From positions 34,596,001-34,660,000 of the forward strand of contig OZ024746.1 of the NCBI GenBank assembly GCA_964016885.1: DNA of 64,000 nucleotides, written 5' to 3'. The notes below the pieces were generated by a model, which did not search any database, was not told the DNA's origin, and worked only from the letters and a program-made list of their open reading frames with translations. The position numbers and the translations under genes are program-made. Below are positions 27,930-58,390 of this stretch, in pieces (the first letter of the stretch is position 1; every line of letters starts with the position of its first letter). Source of the stretch: Eledone cirrhosa. Its lineage: Eukaryota.

Positions 27930-28340
27930 AATATATAAATTACCGCACATGGCATCCTAGCGGGTATCACAAACCTACACCACTAAAAATAGCAGCCAGG
28001 TTTACTCGACATTTGAAATAGCACAACAAATTAACGGAGCTGAATATATAAAAGGTTAGGAACACAAAGGTATATATTGAGTTAGGAACTCAAAGGTATA
28101 TATTGAGTTAGGAACGCTTTTATATTCTATTATAATATACGGCTCAGAAATATCTCTTTCTTAGAGCTATTTTACTGTAAGAGACTATTTTGAGTTCCTA
28201 ACTCAATATATACCTTTGATATATTTGGCTCCGTTAATTTGTTGAGCTATTTCAAATGTCGAGTAAACCTGGCTGCTATTTTTAGTGGTGTAGGTTTCTG
28301 AGACACGCTAGGATGCTGTGCGGTATTTTATATATTTTAT
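27930..28340. repeat. Imperfect fold-back element
   Basis: About 27935-28095 pairs with about 28189-28332; internal ~25-bp tandem repeat caaaggtatatattgagttaggaac; TA-rich flanks. Confidence 0.82.
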
Positions 28341-28380
28341 ATATAGCATACTTAGATATGTCTAGGATATTAATTCATCA

Positions 28381-28451
28381 CCCACTGATGAGCTTGGATT
28401 GGTATTTCTATTCACAATTAACTTTGCGAAACAACAACAGTGTTGTCTGGG
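28381..28451 (+). ncRNA. Type I hammerhead ribozyme with full stem III
   Basis: ccca CTGATGA GC...GC GAA ACAACA-acag-TGTTGT C tggg: GUC triplet, predicted cut after 28447. A partial copy lies at about 31945-31975 (-). Confidence 0.78.
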
Positions 28452-28625
28452 TGGTTGGTAGTTACCACAATTCCGGTTTGTATTTATTTTCTTAATTCTT
28501 TCTTAAATTGAGACAAGCGAACCCAATAGTCTATAGTTAGTATTCTTTTCACCTTAGCGAATCAGCTCCTTACGATTTGAACACATATATGTATATATCT
28601 GTGTTCGTTTTTCTTTTATATTCTA

Positions 28626-31345
<2,720 letters not shown>

Positions 31346-31363
31346 ATATATATATATATATAT

Positions 31364-47262: not shown

Positions 47263-47305
47263 AAATATATATATACATATATATATACATGTATATATAT
47301 ATAAG

Positions 47306-47397
<92 letters not shown>

Positions 47398-47399
47398 TA

Positions 47400-48572
47400 C
47401 AACATTAAATTAAGGTTGACATGTCTGAGAGACATGCGCCATATTAACTGCAGAATAACCTCAAAGATTCCTATGAATAGATCCGAGTATTTTTTATCAA
47501 CTAGAAATAGATTGACACATATATATATATATATAAAATAAACACATGAAAGAATCCCAGGGAATAATTTGCAAAATATGTAAGCACGCATTGATAGGTA
47601 GGTAACTAATTAAATTTTAACTAGAACTTCAAATATTGATACCTTCTAAAATGATTAATCTCCTTTGTATATATTTCTTTAAAAAATATATTTCACCAAT
47701 TAACCAGTAAATCACACAGGTCAAATCCTGGATGGTCACCAAAGGAGAACATCCATGCATCTGTGCTTACACAGCAAATGCAAATCTGTGAATGACTCGA
47801 ACCACGTGTTGCATTTTATATCGAACCGCGTCACCCCAGTGGCGTCAATAGGATTATAAAAATATATTTTTTAAAGAAATATTTACAAAGGATATTAATC
47901 TTTTTAAAAAGTATCTATATTTGAAGTCCTAGTTAAACTTTAATTAGTTACCTACCTAGCTATGTATGCTTACACACTTTACACATTATTCCCTGTTTAT
48001 TTTATATATATATGTGTGTCAATCTATTTCTAGTTGATATAAAATGCTCGGATCTATTCATTAGAATCTTTGAGCTTATTCTGCAGTGAATGTGGCGCAT
48101 GTCTCTCAGACATGACAACCTTAATTTAATTTTGGATATATATATATATATACAGCCCCTTGATTGTAGAGCTAATTCAGTTGAATGGACTCGGCTACTA
48201 TTTCTATCTGTCGATAATCCTATTCACGCCACTGGGATGACGCGGTGCGATGTCTGTATTTTTTATAAAATGCAACGCGTGGTTCGAGTCATTCACAGAT
48301 GTGCATTTGCTGTGTAAACACAGATGGTTGGATCTTCTCCTTTGGTGAACATCCAGGATTTGACCGCTGTGATTTACTGGTTAATTGGTGAAATTTATTT
48401 TGTTATATAACGAAATATATACAAAGGAGATTAATCATATTTGAAGTTCTAGTTAAACGTTAATTAGTTACCTACCTAGCTATGTGTGCTTACACACTTT
48501 ACAAATTATTCCCTGAGATTGTTACATGTGTTTATTTTATATATATATGTGTCAATCTATTTCTAGTTGATA
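47400..48572. mobile_element. 533-bp non-coding unit (family A): inverted partial copy + ~1.3 tandem copies
   Basis: 47400-47858 is the reverse complement of parts of 47860-48570; gtcaatctatttctag recurs at 48018 and 48551 (period 533); (TA)n flanks. Confidence 0.82.
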
Positions 48573-48594
48573 TATATATATATATATATATATA

Positions 48595-49480
48595 CAAAAT
48601 TAAGATAAATTAAATGAATTTAATCCAAATCGAAATTGTGGGTATGATGTGTAGACACAACACGTGGTAGCGGCCAGTGGAAGATTTGAACTCGCTGTGT
48701 GAGCATGGATAGCTGACATTATTCTTCCTTGTTGACAATCCAATAATATCCACTTTCCGTGACTTACCATCTGATTAATTGGTGAAATATATTTCTTTAA
48801 TGGGATATATACAAGGAAGGTTAATCATACTTAAAGGTATACATTTAATTATTATCCAAACTAGCCATGCGTGGTTACACGCTTGTAAAAATTATCTCCT
48901 GTGGTTATTCATGTATATTTATATGTTAATCAATTTCTAGTTATTTTAAAATGCTCGGATATATCTTTGAGCTTATTTCCAGGCGATATGGCGCACGCCG
49001 TTATGGCATGACACCCACAATTTTGATTTGGATTAAATTCATTTAATTTATCTTAACTTTGGATATAGATATATATATATACGGCTCCTTAATTGTAGAG
49101 CTATTTCTGTTGAAGGGAATTTGACTGCTATTTCTAGTTGTCGAATACCTATTCACGCCACTGAAACGGAGCTGCTGTGATGTGTAGACACAACACGTGG
49201 TAGCGGCCAGATGAAGATTTGAACTCGCTGTGACAGCATGGATAGCTGGACATTATTCTTCTTTGTTGACAATCCAATAATATCCACTTTCCGTGACTTA
49301 CCATCTGATTAATTGGTGAAATATATTTTTTTAATGGGATATATACAAGGAAGGTTAATCATACTTAAAGGTATAAATTTAATTATTACCCAAACTAGCC
49401 ATTTGTGGTTACACGCTTGTAAACATCATCTCCTGTGATTATTCATGTATATTTATATGTTAATCAATTTCTAGTTATTA
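48595..49480. mobile_element. 533-bp non-coding unit (family B, related to A): short inversion + ~1.6 tandem copies
   Basis: gatgtgtagacacaac recurs at 48646 and 49179 (period 533); 48595-48642 is the reverse complement of about 49014-49061. Confidence 0.82.
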
Positions 49481-49533
49481 TATATATATATGTATGAAAT
49501 ATAAGAATCAAAGAACTATTCAAAACATTTTTG

Positions 49534-49580: not shown

Positions 49581-50510
49581 ATTTATTAATGAATGGACAG
49601 TTATATGACCTCCTTTTCACCCAAGAGACATACAGATACATATGCAAATATTGTGGGTCAACATTCATTACAGCATTTAGAGTGACAGTACACACTTAGA
49701 GATTACATTCATATTAAAATGTACAATAAAAAATAAAAAATACAGGTTAAAATACAACATGAAAATAAGCGGTTATATAGTGCAAATGTTATATGTGTGG
49801 CAAGCACGTGCGTCTTGTTTATATAGTGTGGCAGAGAGTTACGTGTAGTAGAAGCACTTAGGTAGGTAAACAAGAGTGTTAGGTTGGTTGATCTGGTGGC
49901 AAATTCTTTATATGTTTGTTATAGTCTGTGTGTGGAGAAATGATATAAGCATTAAAAATAGTGCAAGCATTAAAGATATTAAAAGTATTGGAAATGCACA
50001 GCGAAGGGGTGATATGGACTTCATGTACTTCGACATTTTCATAGTCAGGGGAGTCTATTTTTCAGATTATATGCCCCTCACATAATCCACGACAATTCGA
50101 TATTGAGCGTTTGATAATCCAGTTATATTTTATATAACTGCTCTGTAATTCATCTTATGTTTTTAAATTGAGCTACTTAACTTGCTGGTAATAAGGTAGT
50201 AATATATTACTGCCTACCACTATTTAGGGTTTGTATAAAAAAATATATATAACTGCAAAAGGTTTTTGTATTTACATAACAATAAATAGTATAATTAATA
50301 CTATATATATGTATGTATACAAACAAACATACATATACACACATACATAATCATATACATCTTATACATAAACAAATACATACACACATACATATATACA
50401 TATATATATATGTGTTTGTATATGTGTATATGTATGTGTGTATTGCATGCATGTATGTGCATGTATGTGTATATATGTATGCTTGTTCATGTATATATAT
50501 ATATATATAT

Positions 50511-53500
50511 TTATACTCTGGGAGGGTTATGTTGCCAATAAGAAACACACGCACCAGTTGCTTTCACTTCAATTTATTATAATAAATTTGTAAGAAATTT
50601 ATAAATTTATAAATTTCTGGTGTTTTGGTTGGTTCCACAACCAGATAGTTGTTTATATATTGTCATAGTTCTTTCGTCACACACTCTGTGACCTCTTCAG
50701 TGACTGGGGATTCCTTTCTTTGTTTCTGTGCCTCTCCTTTGTTCTGTCCTACGCCATTTTGTTTCTGTGTGTGTGTTGTGTGCTCAGTCTGCGCATGCGC
50801 CACATCCAGGTGTCTGTGTGTGTGTATGTTCATTTATTTATTTGTTTATTTACATGTTACTGGTTGGTTGTTTGTTCTATGTGTGTGTGTGTTTTCATTT
50901 TGTCCTTAATGGTAAGTTGTGATGTTGCTGTTCCACTCATATTTTCTATTTAAATTTGGTTGTAATTCTTTTATGTTTATTGCCTCTGTGATTTGTCTAA
51001 ACATTGCGTCTTTTCTGTGTGTAGATTCTATTTTTATTTCTATGTTCTCTAATTTACCCTTGTGTTCTATTTTAGCATGTTGGTAGAGTACAGATGATTC
51101 TTTACTATCTTGAAGGTCTCGCCAGTGTTCATTTATCCGTTCCCCTACACTACGATCTGTCTCACCTATGTACACTATATTTTTGTCTTTACGTTGGCCT
51201 TCAGTACATCTTATGCTATACACGACATTTCTAGTTTCACAATTAATATGGGGGCTTATTTTACAGGTTATACATTTCTTATCTATACATGAGGGTCTTT
51301 GAAAAGGGTATGTATTGCTAATAAGTGTTTTTACGGGGGTACCTGTTCTTTCTACTATCTTAATATTGAGTTTATGTTTATCTAGGGCCCTTCTAAATTT
51401 GTAAGCTAATTCACCTCTAGGGGTTGTATCGATGAACATTACACTCTGGTATTTATTGCTATCATACCATGAGTTTATTCTATTAGCCTTGTTCCTAGTT
51501 CTTTCTATTCTATTCCAAAATTTGCTCCTATACAAGGGGCAGGTCCCATTTATGTCATTATTTACCATTTTTACCCATTTGGTTCTGGCTCCTCTATACA
51601 CTCTGATTTTATCTCTCTGATTGTAGCCAGATAACTGCATACGGTGGATGAAGCGTTGTATGTGTCTCTCTAGTTCTTCGGGGTTGCACATGCGGGACAC
51701 GTTTCTCATCACCCGTACCAAATCCGGAATCAGGATGTTGATTTTGGTATGGTCCGAAACGGCCGAGTTTCGGTGGATCAGATATTTGGAAGTCATGGGT
51801 TTGGCATTATGGGAATGGAGGATTTGTTTTTTGTTATTAATGGTATCTAACAAGAGCTATGTGTCTAGTACAGGTAATCGATGGTGGGGGTGTTTACTTG
51901 GGTAGTCTATAGTAACTTTAATGCTCTGGTTCATGGAGTCAGCTATTTGCTGGATGCTTTCCATAGTGTTTTTCTCTAGTTTCTGACTGTTCTCTAGTGG
52001 GGGTGTCTTAACTACGATGTTTATATCATCAACGTAGCGGGAGTACATTATCAGGGTTAAGAGGTCTTCTAATTATTCTTTAAGTTTAAGTTTAAGTCTA
52101 CTGTCCCACCATACCATGAATAAGTTAGCTATGTCGCCTGCAATGCTAACACCAATGGCTGCTCCTTCCTCTTGGGCATATGTTTTTCCATTAAATTTGA
52201 ACTTATGTTCCTTAAGGGCTAGTTTTATGCTGGCCCCTGCCGCATGTGCAATCATTTTCTTCAGTTCATCGTGGTTTTCGGGTGTCCGTATGTCTCTGGT
52301 CCACCCGTTCAATCTATCTGTGTTGGTTTTCTTGGCCATTGAGGTAATGGTAGGTGGTCTGCCTTTTGCTGGTCTTGTAGGGCACAGGTTGCTAAGGTCA
52401 TATGTGTCTAGGTAATTATTACTATAGGTAAGTTTAAGTAGGAGTGCCAGCTCACTGGTATCAATCCCACGGAACTCAACATTGCTCTCACTGATCATTT
52501 CTACGCATTTCTCCACAGCAAAATCCACGTCAATAGATGGATACAGGGACACAACATCCATGCTACCTATTATGCAGTTTGTTAGGTCCCTAGATCGGTT
52601 ACCATCGCCGATTCTGCTGAGGAGGTCCTCCGTGCTATCACATACATCTGGGGACATTTAAATGATGGCGCGTATGATCAGGGAGAGGAAGTAGGACAGT
52701 CTGTAGTTACTAGCAATGTTAGCTCCACAGACTGGCCGTGTTGGTGTTCCCGCGACAGGGTCACTGCCGGTTTTATGGTCTTTTCGAAGCCCATACAACG
52801 CCGGCACGTCATTGTTCCAGGCCTGGAAGTTGTTGGTAGTCCTTTTGTAGGGCTCCATTATATTCGTCCACATCACCATATGGGCATTGAGGGCTTTTTC
52901 TCTATCCTCATGCTCCTGTGGTGTTACCTCTCTTGTGTTAGTGATGTCGGATTGCATTGCCAGGATGTAGTTTGGCAGGCTGTCAACCGACATTCTGCCA
53001 GACTTGAATGTTGGAAAGCATGCTATCTCTCCATTACGCGAGCGCTGCATGAGCTTACGCAAGCCATTTGCAGATTTTTCTCCCAGTTGCTGGGCCTCCA
53101 TTCTATTATGCTTATTGCTATACTGTTCTATAATATTTCTAAGTTCGTATCTATCTATACTAAATTGTGCTTCTGTTTGTTCATCGACCTGCGACGGCAA
53201 TTGCGTGCGTTTGTTAAATTGTAAAGTCGTGGCGTGGACTCGTCGCAGGTCGAACGATTTATCGGAGGGATTATAAAAAGTAGAGTTCCAGGCTGCTGCT
53301 TTATGTGTACTAGTGCTATTGTTATTGTTAGTTGTGTTGTTTCTATTTCTATTTCCACAAACAGCCTCATGGTCGTTTCTATGTCTCTCATAATTACTCC
53401 TGTCTCTTTCCAATGGCTCATTGTTGTTATCTACCCTATTGTGTGTGTCTGTGTGTTCGTCTTGGTTATTTTCTTTGTCCTTAGTTTCCCTTCTCCTTTT

Positions 53501-54425
53501 AATCCTATTACTTTCCCTTATTTCTGTGATTTCTGTGCTACTGTCATTACATGTTTTCTGTGTTTGTGTGTTTGTTAAGATTGTGGTGGTGGTGAGAGGC
53601 ATTGAATGTGTGTGTATTGTTGTTTTTGATGTGTGCTGATGTTGATGTCTGTTGTTGTTGTCTCCGTGTGTGTTATTATTGTTGTGTGTGTTGTTATTGT
53701 TGTTCGTGTCTGCGTGTCTGTTGTTGTTGTTTCTGGGTATGTTATTATTGTTATTGTTGTTGTTGGTGTGTGTTGTTGTTATTGTTGTTTGTGTCTGTGT
53801 GTCTGTTGTTGTTGGGATGTGTGTTGTATATGTGTGTGCGTATATTGTTGCTTTTGTTTTTGTTTTTGTTTTTGAAGCTCCAGCGTAGTTTTGTAAATGA
53901 TGTTTCTATTTCTGACAGACAACTAATCATATTTACCTTCTTGAATGTCGCAAATTTCGGGGGTAGACGTAATACAGATAACTCATCGTCATCTATTACT
54001 GTGTTGCCGTATATATTTGTGTTGTTGTTGTTGTTGAAATCATCTGTTAATGAGGTGTCGGCCATACTTATACCGTCAATTTTGTCGGGATATCTATTGG
54101 TATTCTCTACAGTATCCTGTTTTAGTTTCTTGCTAAAGTGCTTATCACATTCTTGAGTAATGTACTGTTCTTCAGGACGTATAAGGCTTATAAATATTAG
54201 TTTCTCTCTTGGTGTGGTGATCCTAGCTATTTTTTGTATTAGGTTACGCTTATCTTTTTCTTGATGACTTAATTCTCTATAGATCTTTTTTTATGTTTAG
54301 AATTAGTGTTCGTTTTAGCCTATTTGCTTGTTTTTTGGTGAGTTGTAATCTTCTGATGTCGGTGTTGATGGTGTTGGTGTAAACTCGACGAGGCACATTC
54401 TTTTATGATGTGTAGTTGTCGAGAT
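50511..54425 (-). mobile_element. Penelope-like element, left arm of head-to-head pair
   Basis: KSGR, YGLRKDHK, TRPVCGA, GSMDVVSLYPSI, EGAAIG, RYVDD, LPVLD, then VVYSIRC...VYIGETDR...R..EH (GIY-YIG). HHR at 50662-50704 (-). Confidence 0.92.
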
Positions 54426-54439
54426 GTTATGGTTTTTCG

Positions 54440-57400
54440 TAGACAACAGAAACAAGAAACTAAAGTGGCTTAAGCAGATAAAGCTAAATCAGGATACTGT
54501 AGAGAATACCAATAGATATCCCGACAAAATTGACGGTATAAATATGGCCGACACCTCATTAACAGATGAGTTCAACAACAACAACAACACAAATATATAC
54601 GGCAACACAGTAATAGACGACGATGAGTTATCTGTATTACGTCTACCCCCGAAATTTGCGACATTCAAGAAGGTAAATATGATTAGTTGTCTGTCAGAAA
54701 TAGAAAAATCACTTACAAAACTATGCTGGAGCCTCAAAAACAAAAACAAAAACAAAAGCAACAATATACGCACACACATATACAACACAAATCCCAACAA
54801 CAACAGACACACAGACACAAACAACAATAACAACAACTCACAAACCAACAACAACAACAATAATAACATACCCAGAAACAACAACAACAGACACGCAGAC
54901 ACAAACAACAATAACAACACACACAACAATAATAACACACACGGAGACAACAACCACACACATCAACAACAGCACACATCAACAACAACAACACACACCC
55001 ATTCAATGCCTCTCGCCACCACCACAATCTTAACAAACACACAGACACAGAAAAGAAGTAATGACAGTAGCACAGAAATCACAGAAATAAGGGAAAGTAA
55101 TAGGATTAAAAAGGAGAAGGGAAACTAAGGACAAAGAAAATAACCAAGACGAACACACAGACACACACAATTGGGTAGATAACAACAATGAGCCAGTGGA
55201 AAGAGACAGGAGTAATTATGAGAGACATAGAAACAACCATGAGGCTGTTTGTGGAAATAGAAATAGAAACAACACAACTAACAATAACAATAGCACTAGT
55301 ACACATAAAGCAGCAGCCTGGAACTCTACTTTTTATAATCCCTCCGATAAATCGTTCGACCTGCGACGAGTCCACGCCACGACTTCACAATTTAACAAAC
55401 GCACGCAATTGCCGTCGCAGGTCGATGAACAAACAGAAGCACAATTTAGTATAGCTAGATCCGAACTTAGAAATATTATAGAACAGTATAGCAAGAAGCA
55501 TAATAGAATGGAGGCCCAGCAACTGGGAGAAAAATCTGCAAATGGCTTGCGTAAGCTCATGCAGCGCTCGCGTAATGGAGAGATAGCATGCTTTCCAACA
55601 GACAAGTCTGGCAGAATGTCGGTTTTCAGTCTGCCAAACTACATCCAGGCAATGCAACCCCACATCACTAACACAAGAGAGGTAACACCACAGGAGCATG
55701 AGGATAGAGAAAAAGCCCTCAATGCCCATATGGTGATGTGGACGAATATAATGCAGCCCAACAAAAGGACTACCAACAACTTCCAGGCCTGGAACAATGA
55801 CGTGCCGGCGTTGTATGGGCTTCGAAAAGACCATAAAAAGGGCAGTGACCCTGTAGCGGGACCACCAACACGGCCAGTCTGTGGAGCTAACATGGCTAGT
55901 AATTACAGACTGTCCTACTTCCTCTCCCTGATCATACGCGCCATCATTTAAATGTCCCCAGATGTATGTGATAGCACGGAGGACCTCCTCAGCAGAATCG
56001 GCGAGGGTAACCGATCTAGGGACCTAACAAACTGCATAATAGGTAGCATGGATGTTGTGTCCCTGTATCCATCTATTGACGTGGATTTTGCTGTGGAGAA
56101 ATGCGTAGAAATGATCAGTGAGAGCAATGTTGAGTTCCGTGGGATTGATACCAGTGAGCTGGCACTCCTACTTAAACTTACCTATAGTAATTATTACCTA
56201 GACACATATGACCTTAGCAACCTGTGCCCTACAAGACCAGCAAAAGGCAGACCACCTACCATTACCTCAATGGCCAAGAAAACCAACACAGATAGATCGA
56301 ACGGGTGGACCAGAGCCATACGGACACCCGAAAACCACGATGAACTGAAGAAAATGATTGCACATGCGGTAGGGGCCAGCATAAAACTAACCCTTAAGGA
56401 ACATAAGTTCAAATTTAATGGAAAAACATATGCCCAAGAGGAAGGAGCAGCCATTGGTGTTAGCATTGCAGGCGACATAGCTAACTTATTCATGGTATGG
56501 TGGGACAGTAGACTTAAACTTAAACTTAAAGAACAATTAGAAGACCCCTTAACCCTGATAATGTACTCCCGCTACGTTGATGATATAAACATCGTAGTTA
56601 AGACACCCCCACTAGAGAACAGTCAGGAACTATAGAAAAACACAATGGAAAGCAGCCAGCAAATAGCTGACACCATGAACCAGAGCATTAGAGTTACTAT
56701 AGACTACCCAAGTAAACACCCCAACCATCGATTACCTGTACTAGACACAGAGCTCTTGTTAGATACCATTAATAACAACAAAACAAATCCTCCATACCCA
56801 TTATGCCAAACCCATGACTTACAAACATCTGATCCACAGAAACTCGGCCGTTTCGGACCATACGAAAATCAACATACTGATTGCGGATTTGGTACGGGTG
56901 ATGAGAAACGTGTCCAGCATGTGCAACCCCGAAGAACTAGAGAGACACATACACCACTTCATCCACCGTATGCAGTTATCTGGCTACAATCAGAGAGATA
57001 AAATTAGAGTGTATAGAGGAGCCAGAACCAAATGGGAAAAAATGGTAAATAATGACATAAATGGGACCTGCCCCTTGTATAGCAGCAAATTGTGGAATAG
57101 AATAGAAAGAACTAGGAACAAGGCTAATAGAATAAACTCATGGTATGATAGCAATAAATACCAGAGTGTAATGTTCATCGATATAGCCCCTACAGGTGAA
57201 TTAGCTTACAACTTTAGAAGGGCCCTAGATAAACATAAACTCAATATTAAGATAGTAGAAAGACCAGGTACCTCCGTAAAAACACTTATTAGCAAGACAT
57301 ACCCGTTTCAAAGACCCTCATGTATAGATAAGAAATGTATAACCTGTAAAATAAGCCCCCATATTAACTGTAAAACTAGAAATGTAGTGTATAGCAAACG

Positions 57401-58161
57401 ATGTACTGAAGGACAATGTAGAGACAAAGATATAGTGTACATAGATGAGACAACTCGTAGTGTAGGGGAACAGATAAATGAACACTGGCGAGACCTTCAA
57501 GATAGTAAAGAATCATCTGTACTCTACCAACATGCTAAAATAGAACACAAGGGTAAATTAGAGAACATAGAAATAAAAATAGAATCTACACACAGAAAAG
57601 ACGCAATGTTTCGACAAATCACAGAGGCAATAAACATAAAATAATTACAACCAAAATTAAATAGAAAATATGAGTGGAACAGCAACATCACAACTTACAA
57701 TTGAGGACAAAATGAAAACACGCACAAAGAACAAACAACCAACCAGTAACATGTAAATAAACAAATAAATAAATGAACATAAACGCACACAGGCACCCGG
57801 ATGTGGCGCATGCGCAGACTGAGCACACAACACACACACACACAGAAACAAAATGGCGTAGGAGAGAACAAAGGAGAGGCACAGAAACAAAGAAAGGAAT
57901 CCCCAGTCACTGAAGAGGTCACAGAATGTGTGACGAAATAACTATGACAATATATAAACAACTATCTGGTTGTGGAACCAACCAACCAACCAGAAATTTA
58001 TAAATTTATAAATTTATTATAAATTTATTATAATAAATTGAAGTGAAAGCAACTGGTGCGTGTGTTTCTTATTGGCAACATGACCCTCCCAAAGTATAAC
58101 GATATCGGTTTCAACACACGATTTCAGATAAAGAATCTTTCTAAACAAATTCAGAAACGAA

Positions 58162-58165
<4 letters not shown>
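54440..58165 (+). mobile_element. Penelope-like element, right arm of head-to-head pair
   Basis: Same motifs in ORFs 54424, 55196, 55952 and 56814; ends in (TA)n. Confidence 0.92.
57906..57948 (+). ncRNA. Minimal hammerhead in PLE 3' region (mirror 50662-50704 -)
   Basis: gtca CTGAAGA gGTCACA-gaatg-TGTGAC GAAA (T/G)AAC TA tgac. Confidence 0.8.
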
Positions 58166-58228
<63 letters not shown>

Positions 58229-58390
58229 TATGTGTATATATGTATATATATGTACATCAATACGCATCTTTTTCCATTTCTCTGAGGGCTCTAAACCCCA
58301 CAATCAGGCTAGAATTTATTTAGTAAAATATATGGTGGAAGCTCTATTTTCAAATTTCAAACTTGCTCGCTGTTTCAAAACATACTTACT

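Follow-up and report, generated by a model that had tools for sequence, protein, structure and literature searches.

Two nested insertions of a repeat in the genome of Eledone cirrhosa, denoted A and B, carry a type I hammerhead that is hidden from the usual search because, judged by its sequence, the C-G core pair 3-8 is swapped to G-C or U-A. That the motif is a hammerhead is near certain. A and B represent two subfamilies of a single dispersed, non-autonomous lineage of the Penelope-type/retrozyme kind, with about 2,000 copies. The reading that we consider probable, which draws on the anatomy, copy number, hammerhead topology, covariation at 3-8, fixed 3' ends and stronger folding of the plus strand, is that of a protein-less Penelope-type (non-LTR retrozyme) element with a unit of about 530 nt and a swapped type I hammerhead that likely self-cleaves; for being copied into (TA)n, the element probably relies on a reverse transcriptase (RT) borrowed from a Penelope-like element (PLE).

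Within the window, that is, the entire stretch of 64,000 nt analysed here, A and B occupy positions 47400-49482 and are nested within (TA)n. A consists of a 5'-inverted piece on the minus strand (47400-47857, with the sequence match starting at 47382), the 3' end of which lies at the position denoted End2 and is joined to (TA)n at 47265-47399, and of a forward partial tandem of 1.3 units (47860-48572, plus strand), which at End1, its 3' terminus, runs into the (TA)n at 48570-48594. B comprises a short 5'-inverted piece (48575-48649, minus strand), which matches 49007-49081 on the opposite strand and ends at End2 in the TA run flanking A, followed by a forward partial tandem of 1.6 units (48645-49482, plus strand) that likewise terminates 3' at End1 and continues into (TA)n; B appears to have been inserted at the end of A. 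Each forward piece contains an internal TA tract, at 48136-48152 in A (followed by a GGC(T/C)C..GAGCT motif) and at 49062-49081 in B, which corresponds to the End2 position in the alignment with other copies. The period of 533 in partial tandems, the 5' inversions and the (TA)n flanks described in an earlier, sequence-only reading of this DNA were all recovered, with a spacing of 533 or 534 (520 in one A segment, owing to indels) and with the inversion of A extending over 47382-47857 against 47860-48572; the hairpin motifs named there sit at the coordinates given. No frame of 120 or more amino acids was detected inside the A and B units; a TA-repeat-rich frame on the minus strand extends into 47400-47609.

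The hammerhead lies mid-unit, in the order 5' strand of stem I, NUGANNA, U, CCA, about 40 nt, UGG, U, GAAA, stem III, A, 3' strand of stem I. This is the type I topology, a three-way junction with an open stem I, in the order I-core-II-GAAA-III-H17-I. Stem I has 9 bp and stem III 8-9 bp, both stable, and stem II spans about 40 nt. The forward A copy (48336-48430, plus strand) has stem I at 48336-48344 and 48422-48430, the core GUGAACA (G3-C8) at 48345-48351, U10.1-U11.1 with a long stem II (48352-48389), GAAA at 48390-48393 and A17 at 48421; its stem III is mutated at 15.3 in this window copy. In the inverted piece of A (47659-47748, minus strand), the core GUGACCA (G3-C8) is found at 47739-47733 and GAAA at 47694-47691, with the predicted cut between 47668 and 47667. 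B has two plus-strand hammerheads with the core UUGACAA (U3-A8), one at 48723-48820 (core 48732-48738, GAAA 48784-48787, A17 48811) and the other at 49257-49354 (core 49266-49272, GAAA 49318-49321, A17 49345), so that the two cores are 534 nt apart, one per tandem repeat. Loop II (GATTAAT) is complementary to ATTAATC immediately 3' of stem I (48380-48386 with 48430-48436; 49308-49314 with 49354-49360), a possible pseudoknot that might provide the tertiary contact between stem I and loop II; the changes seen in it are all one-sided and of the G-U type.

Every one of the four copies that extend across the motif has the core, and of the three options left by the sequence-only reading, a highly variant hammerhead was the correct one. 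The literal CTGANGA...GAAA is indeed absent from 47400-49480, as had been noted, but the conclusion that there is no canonical ribozyme holds only to that extent, given the hammerhead with the swapped pair. The possibility raised there that a family consensus would restore an ordinary hammerhead was borne out for the sister subfamilies, which have the canonical CUGANGA (159 genomic matches), and not for the consensuses of A and B, which keep the swapped core. A scan of these consensuses for CUGANGA that allowed a single mismatch did not pick up the cores, which depart from it at two positions. No ribozyme family of Rfam matched the A/B region at E<=10 or the whole window at E<=1, a result of little weight because the canonical hammerheads elsewhere in the window likewise went unmatched.

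The core reads GUGANCA (G3-C8) in A and UUGANAA (U3-A8) in B and in a further subfamily, C. Across the genome, the G3-C8 pattern has 312 matches and the canonical C3-G8 pattern in the same context 159, with none in the controls for either, and about 1,500 matches were obtained for the U3-A8 core UUGANAA. When positions 3 and 8 were left free, in a pattern the spacing of which excludes most A copies, there were 1,630 matches (75 in the forward control and none in the reverse one); the first 100 of these, an unselected genome sample inspected by eye, included 94 U-A, 3 G-C and 3 other. A set of 205 copies was assembled from 223 raw detections in sampled loci after removal of 5 duplicates and 13 with a poor G12 context; it is non-random and includes a targeted search for C-G. 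The 3-8 states in this set are U-A in 118, G-C in 42, C-G in 35, A-U and U-G in one each, and mismatched in 8, that is, a Watson-Crick pair in 196 of 205. G12 A13 A14 and A15.1-U16.1 are each retained in 200 of the 205 copies and the AUA cleavage triplet in 194; U4G5A6 and A9 are kept in most. Positions 10.1-11.1 form a U-U mismatch, rather than the usual G-C pair, in 200 copies, under all three 3-8 states. Among core nucleotides 3-9, only N7 varies apart from the 3-8 pair, as expected of a hammerhead. A relaxed hammerhead descriptor matched the B unit of the window and none of 2000 shuffles of each unit; the forward A copy, mutated at 15.3, fails it. Among 50 copies chosen to represent the three 3-8 states (48 distinct, all 48 paired at 3-8 by construction), 95.8% of the stem cells are paired, compared with 38-61% in slid controls, and two-sided changes were observed at four of the nine stem I pairs, one of these in a single row.

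An initial search of the 3.0-Gb genome gave 3445 and 2151 candidates for the two units, of which the best 40 of each were scored, and for a 16-mer common to A and B the genome yields 1,514 exact matches, compared with 2 for a control. The lineage is a series of at least seven subfamilies with 70-91% identity and units of 525-560 nt; among six subfamily consensuses, 319 of 473 gap-free columns are invariant. A and B, which had been taken for diverged families, are divergent at 76% identity, but they are homologous subfamilies of this lineage (identical at 366 of the 480 consensus columns that align), and hairpins common to both are therefore expected by descent.

To trace the history of the swap, positions 3 and 8 were masked and a tree was built from 184 segments; it includes a few double detections, and its bootstrap is unsettled and its root unestablished. 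In this tree, 38 G-C copies and 3 mismatched ones occupy one branch (100/99) among C-G neighbours, and U-A copies lie on the other side, with one U-A row amid C-G copies; the most divergent subfamily has C-G in 21 of its 26 detections. From the placement in the tree and from the state of this subfamily, we infer that C-G was the ancestral 3-8 pair and that at least two double changes followed. The covariation at 3-8 reflects only two or three independent double changes. Both clade-level changes give Watson-Crick pairs, one of them via two transversions, and no subfamily with a mismatched 3-8 state was seen in the sampled loci.

The plus strands of the six subfamily consensuses fold more stably than shuffled sequences (z of -4.5 to -7.0, compared with -0.9 to -2.8 for the minus strands; 25 shuffles each), and with 57-66% of the bases paired in the predicted fold, the RNA is highly self-paired. 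RNAalifold finds many two-sided changes among the consensuses and pairs the invariant TGGCG with CGCCA (of the type at 48227-48231) in a predicted long-range helix. The hammerhead-competent fold lies above the MFE of the isolated domain by medians of 4.2 (C-G), 4.8 (G-C) and 5.7-5.9 (U-A) kcal/mol, and in B an invariant TTACCA/TGGTGA hairpin is predicted to sequester G12-A13. The tail, at 48093-48117 in A and 48989-49013 in B (both plus strand), contains TGGCG and a hairpin, at 48098-48114 and 48994-49010, respectively. The sequence-only reading had placed a candidate ribozyme near this TGGCG-CATGTC hairpin at the 3' end; the tail is not the ribozyme, and the hammerhead is located about 135-165 nt upstream of End1. 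The conservation of hairpins proposed there is confirmed for CATGTC/GACATG, which covaries (two-sided changes at two of six pairs in the six consensuses), but not for GGCTC..GAGCT, which is not part of the consensus fold and is weak in the A copy (z=+0.6). A role of the tail as the start of an open reading frame was ruled out by stops in subfamilies A and C. ATGGCG recurs in the A and B tail consensus (48090-48097, 48986-48993) and upstream of the hammerheads in PLE pLTRs near 50770 and 61430. It resembles a YY1 site, so that, besides forming an RNA helix, it may act as a promoter element.

The termini were surveyed in 258 pieces from 138 of 150 loci after removal of overlapping duplicates; because loci L001-L060 were picked as the best full-length matches, lengths are biased upward. 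The 3' ends fall at End1 in 100 pieces, at End2 in 94, at End0, the TA tract just before End1, in 18, near the predicted cut site in 4 and elsewhere in 42. Each of End0, End1 and End2 coincides with an internal UA tract, 200 of these 212 ends are joined to TA repeats, and the tail between the ends measures 110-135 nt. A 5'-5' inversion was found in 88 of the 138 loci, and 97 of the 258 pieces exceed 1.05 units, with a maximum of 2.85. The copies thus have the anatomy of PLEs, with partial tandems, 5' truncation and inversion, and an optional tail. The 5' ends show no significant pile-up at the predicted cut site (8 in a 5-nt window, with a maximum of 10 elsewhere and a mean of 2.3), which suggests that the RT usually reads through, on a circle or on uncleaved RNA. 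In one locus (L022), the inversion junction lies exactly at C1.1, the predicted start of the 3' cleavage product, and pieces in L032 and L034 also start there; one exact match of a 5' end to the cut site is explained by stem I homology at an inversion. Tandem overlaps differ at 672 of 18,521 nt (3.6%) over 85 overlaps, among which no two loci share more than two differences of the same polarity. These differences fit, as weak evidence, one template copied twice and are compatible with a circle.

Under the reading that we favour, tandem copies would be transcribed on the plus strand, and the hammerhead, which likely still self-cleaves in A and B, would cut each unit once, after AUA, in a reaction that is probably slow or aided by a protein; the monomers would then probably be ligated into circles. 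A PLE endonuclease, most likely a Neptune-like one, would nick (TA)n, and, as the coincidence of the ends with internal UA tracts suggests, the nicked end would anneal to one of two or three such tracts and prime reverse transcription, which would give rise to End1, End2 and the tail between them. Passage of the RT through the cut site would yield copies longer than the unit, and template switching would produce the 5' inversions. Source copies that lose the 3-8 pair would not be amplified, whereas those with double changes would be.

It is unlikely, but should be weighed against this scheme, that the fold of the hammerhead persists mainly because it serves as a structure that is slow or depends on protein, with an RT-binding or regulatory role, and that copies derive from uncleaved multimers rather than circles. 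The MFE disfavours the active fold, the 5' ends do not peak at the cut site, Poseidon_Ac uses mainly an uncleaved RNA substrate (PMC11167929), and minimal PLE hammerheads cleave weakly in vitro (PMC4209133), all of which would fit such a structure; yet the 3-8 pair belongs to the active conformation (PMC3884650), and the tandem overlaps, weak as this evidence is, point to one template copied twice. That the hammerhead is dead, with the 3-8 swaps being double substitutions that arose by chance and became fixed in a small number of master copies, is improbable: both clade-level changes ended in Watson-Crick pairs, a mismatched subfamily was not seen, and the variable core nucleotide apart from the pair is N7, against which stand the few independent swap events and the large share of columns (319) that are invariant in any case.

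The two other options of the sequence-only reading found no support. Naiad-type PLEs lack a canonical hammerhead and target (TA)n, and they too show tandems, inversions, tails and a bias to (TA)n (PMC8557442), which would fit a ribozyme-independent parasite of such an element; the ribozyme-free part of this reading is contradicted by the complete hammerhead, canonical in 159 relatives, and we regard such a parasite as very improbable. Still more remote is a new self-cleaving class at the TGGCG/CATGTC and GGCTC..GAGCT hairpins, despite the conservation of the CATGTC hairpin and the TGGCG/CGCCA helix: no Rfam match was obtained, attempts to fit the topologies of twister, pistol and HDV-like ribozymes by eye failed, and the hammerhead already supplies a cleavage site.

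Among known systems, U3-A8 and U10.1-U11.1 are natural hammerhead variants (Perreault et al. 2011, PMC3088659), and both occur in A/B; G3-C8 is not named in section 8 of that paper, and in the A/B lineage the core variants co-occur in one high-copy animal element. About 1,300 U3-A8 motifs are found in Schistosoma PLEs (Cervera 2014, PMC4209133). A/B share with the pLTR hammerheads of Schistosoma mansoni U3-A8 in a PLE context and the layout of partial tandem and inversion, but the latter are minimal, of the dimer type and have G10.1-C11.1, whereas the A/B lineage has a stem III of 8-9 bp, U-U at 10.1-11.1 and the G3-C8 state too. Animal non-LTR retrozymes resemble A/B in their short non-coding, self-paired tandem units with one type I hammerhead each and in their thousands of copies (PMC7229834; 10.64898/2026.07.22.740005; for background, also PMC6765202; a search of PMC6155905 by term for this context gave no match). 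Their units are of 170-400 nt (Cervera and de la Pena 2020, PMC7229834) and up to 972 (Li et al. 2026, 10.64898/2026.07.22.740005). The A/B lineage differs in mostly having 1-1.7 units with 5' inversions, in its long stems II and III and in that about nine out of every ten pattern matches show the swap in the core; its circles are conjectural.

Reverse transcription of Poseidon_Ac starts at two internal sites that bracket the tail, and insertion in vitro does not require the hammerhead (Frangieh et al. 2024, PMC11167929). Poseidon_Ac and A/B both have a pair of fixed 3' ends on the downstream side of the hammerhead, but the tail is 30-40 nt there and 110-135 nt here, and the RT start in Poseidon_Ac is not homologous to the cut DNA, whereas the A/B starts coincide with UA tracts matching (TA)n. 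C3G/G8C, a laboratory double mutant also described in the Poseidon_Ac work, is partly active and restores cleavage in part (PMC11167929, PMC8495972; also PMC3884650). Partial tandem, inversion and an optional tail are the PLE signature (PMC8557442); the lack of a canonical hammerhead, characteristic of Naiad-type PLEs, does not extend to the A/B lineage. Three short A/B motifs are absent from the supplement of Craig et al., a comparison made less reliable by line breaks and cut runs in that text.

No earlier natural example of the G3-C8 form may exist: in the literature covered, in part, it appears only as laboratory double mutants, and priority is uncertain. We advance tentatively, as a real possibility, that this is the first natural self-cleaving G3-C8 hammerhead and that it has been amplified to copies in the hundreds, within a lineage whose 3-8 pair has been C-G, U-A or G-C. 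If so, the lineage would represent an evolutionary rescue experiment, with catalysis under selection in Penelope-type parasites. The need for hammerheads in Penelope-like elements is debated, and Craig et al. suggest that hammerheads may simply parasitise PLEs (PMC8557442). A lineage in which both partners of a pair belonging to the active fold have changed twice speaks for selection acting on this fold. Screens based on CUGANGA would then undercount genomic hammerheads, the standard core search detecting less than one tenth of the pattern matches of the A/B lineage, and supposedly hammerhead-less PLE groups, such as Naiads, which were screened with the cuganga string, may hide swapped cores. 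The lineage also offers natural pairs of wild type and variant for kinetics, and ends at internal UA tracts provide a testable rule for the starts of PLE reverse transcription in elements that target (TA)n.

A candidate source of the RT was sought among GIY-YIG frames (10,597 genome candidates, of which the best 150 were scored); the A/B family profile had no match in the 50 loci checked among the best 150 listed. Taken together, the PLE frames in A/B loci look like fragments of unrelated neighbours. A family with RT and GIY-YIG, with frames up to 938 aa, targets (TA)n and is Neptune-like by its C-terminal endonuclease and cysteine linker, on our reading of PMC8557442; the similarity between the Neptune-like pLTR and A/B scores within shuffles. 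This young autonomous PLE family (L262, L263:5402, L266, L269, L272, L280, L281) has a minimal hammerhead of its own with a palindromic stem III, a U3-A8 core and A17, and like A/B it ends 3' at either of two internal TATA tracts, which lie 76 and 142 nt past the cut site.

Several other repeat families carry hammerheads. An abundant family with a unit of about 497 nt (window 27940-28620) has a canonical hammerhead (28385) and TATA-GGCTC..GAGCT twice per unit; its two-end layout (28120-28620) is like that of A/B, and the TATA-GGCTC..GAGCT region is common to both (profile E about 3e-7 to 1e-6, 2 of 20 loci). Unrelated families combine canonical cores with the U10.1-U11.1 mismatch and A17 (L263:6000, L279:342, L266:184, L269, L278:5665; window 31635), two of them with a very long stem II. 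At 28734-31346, the window contains about 4.8 units of a 541-nt repeat in an inverted tandem, with CUGACGA hammerhead cores. Finally, a 3.8-kb inverted PLE pair at 50368-58249 encodes RT and GIY-YIG-like frames and has two 3' ends about 70 nt apart, with hammerhead cores at 50700 (minus strand) and 57910 (plus strand).
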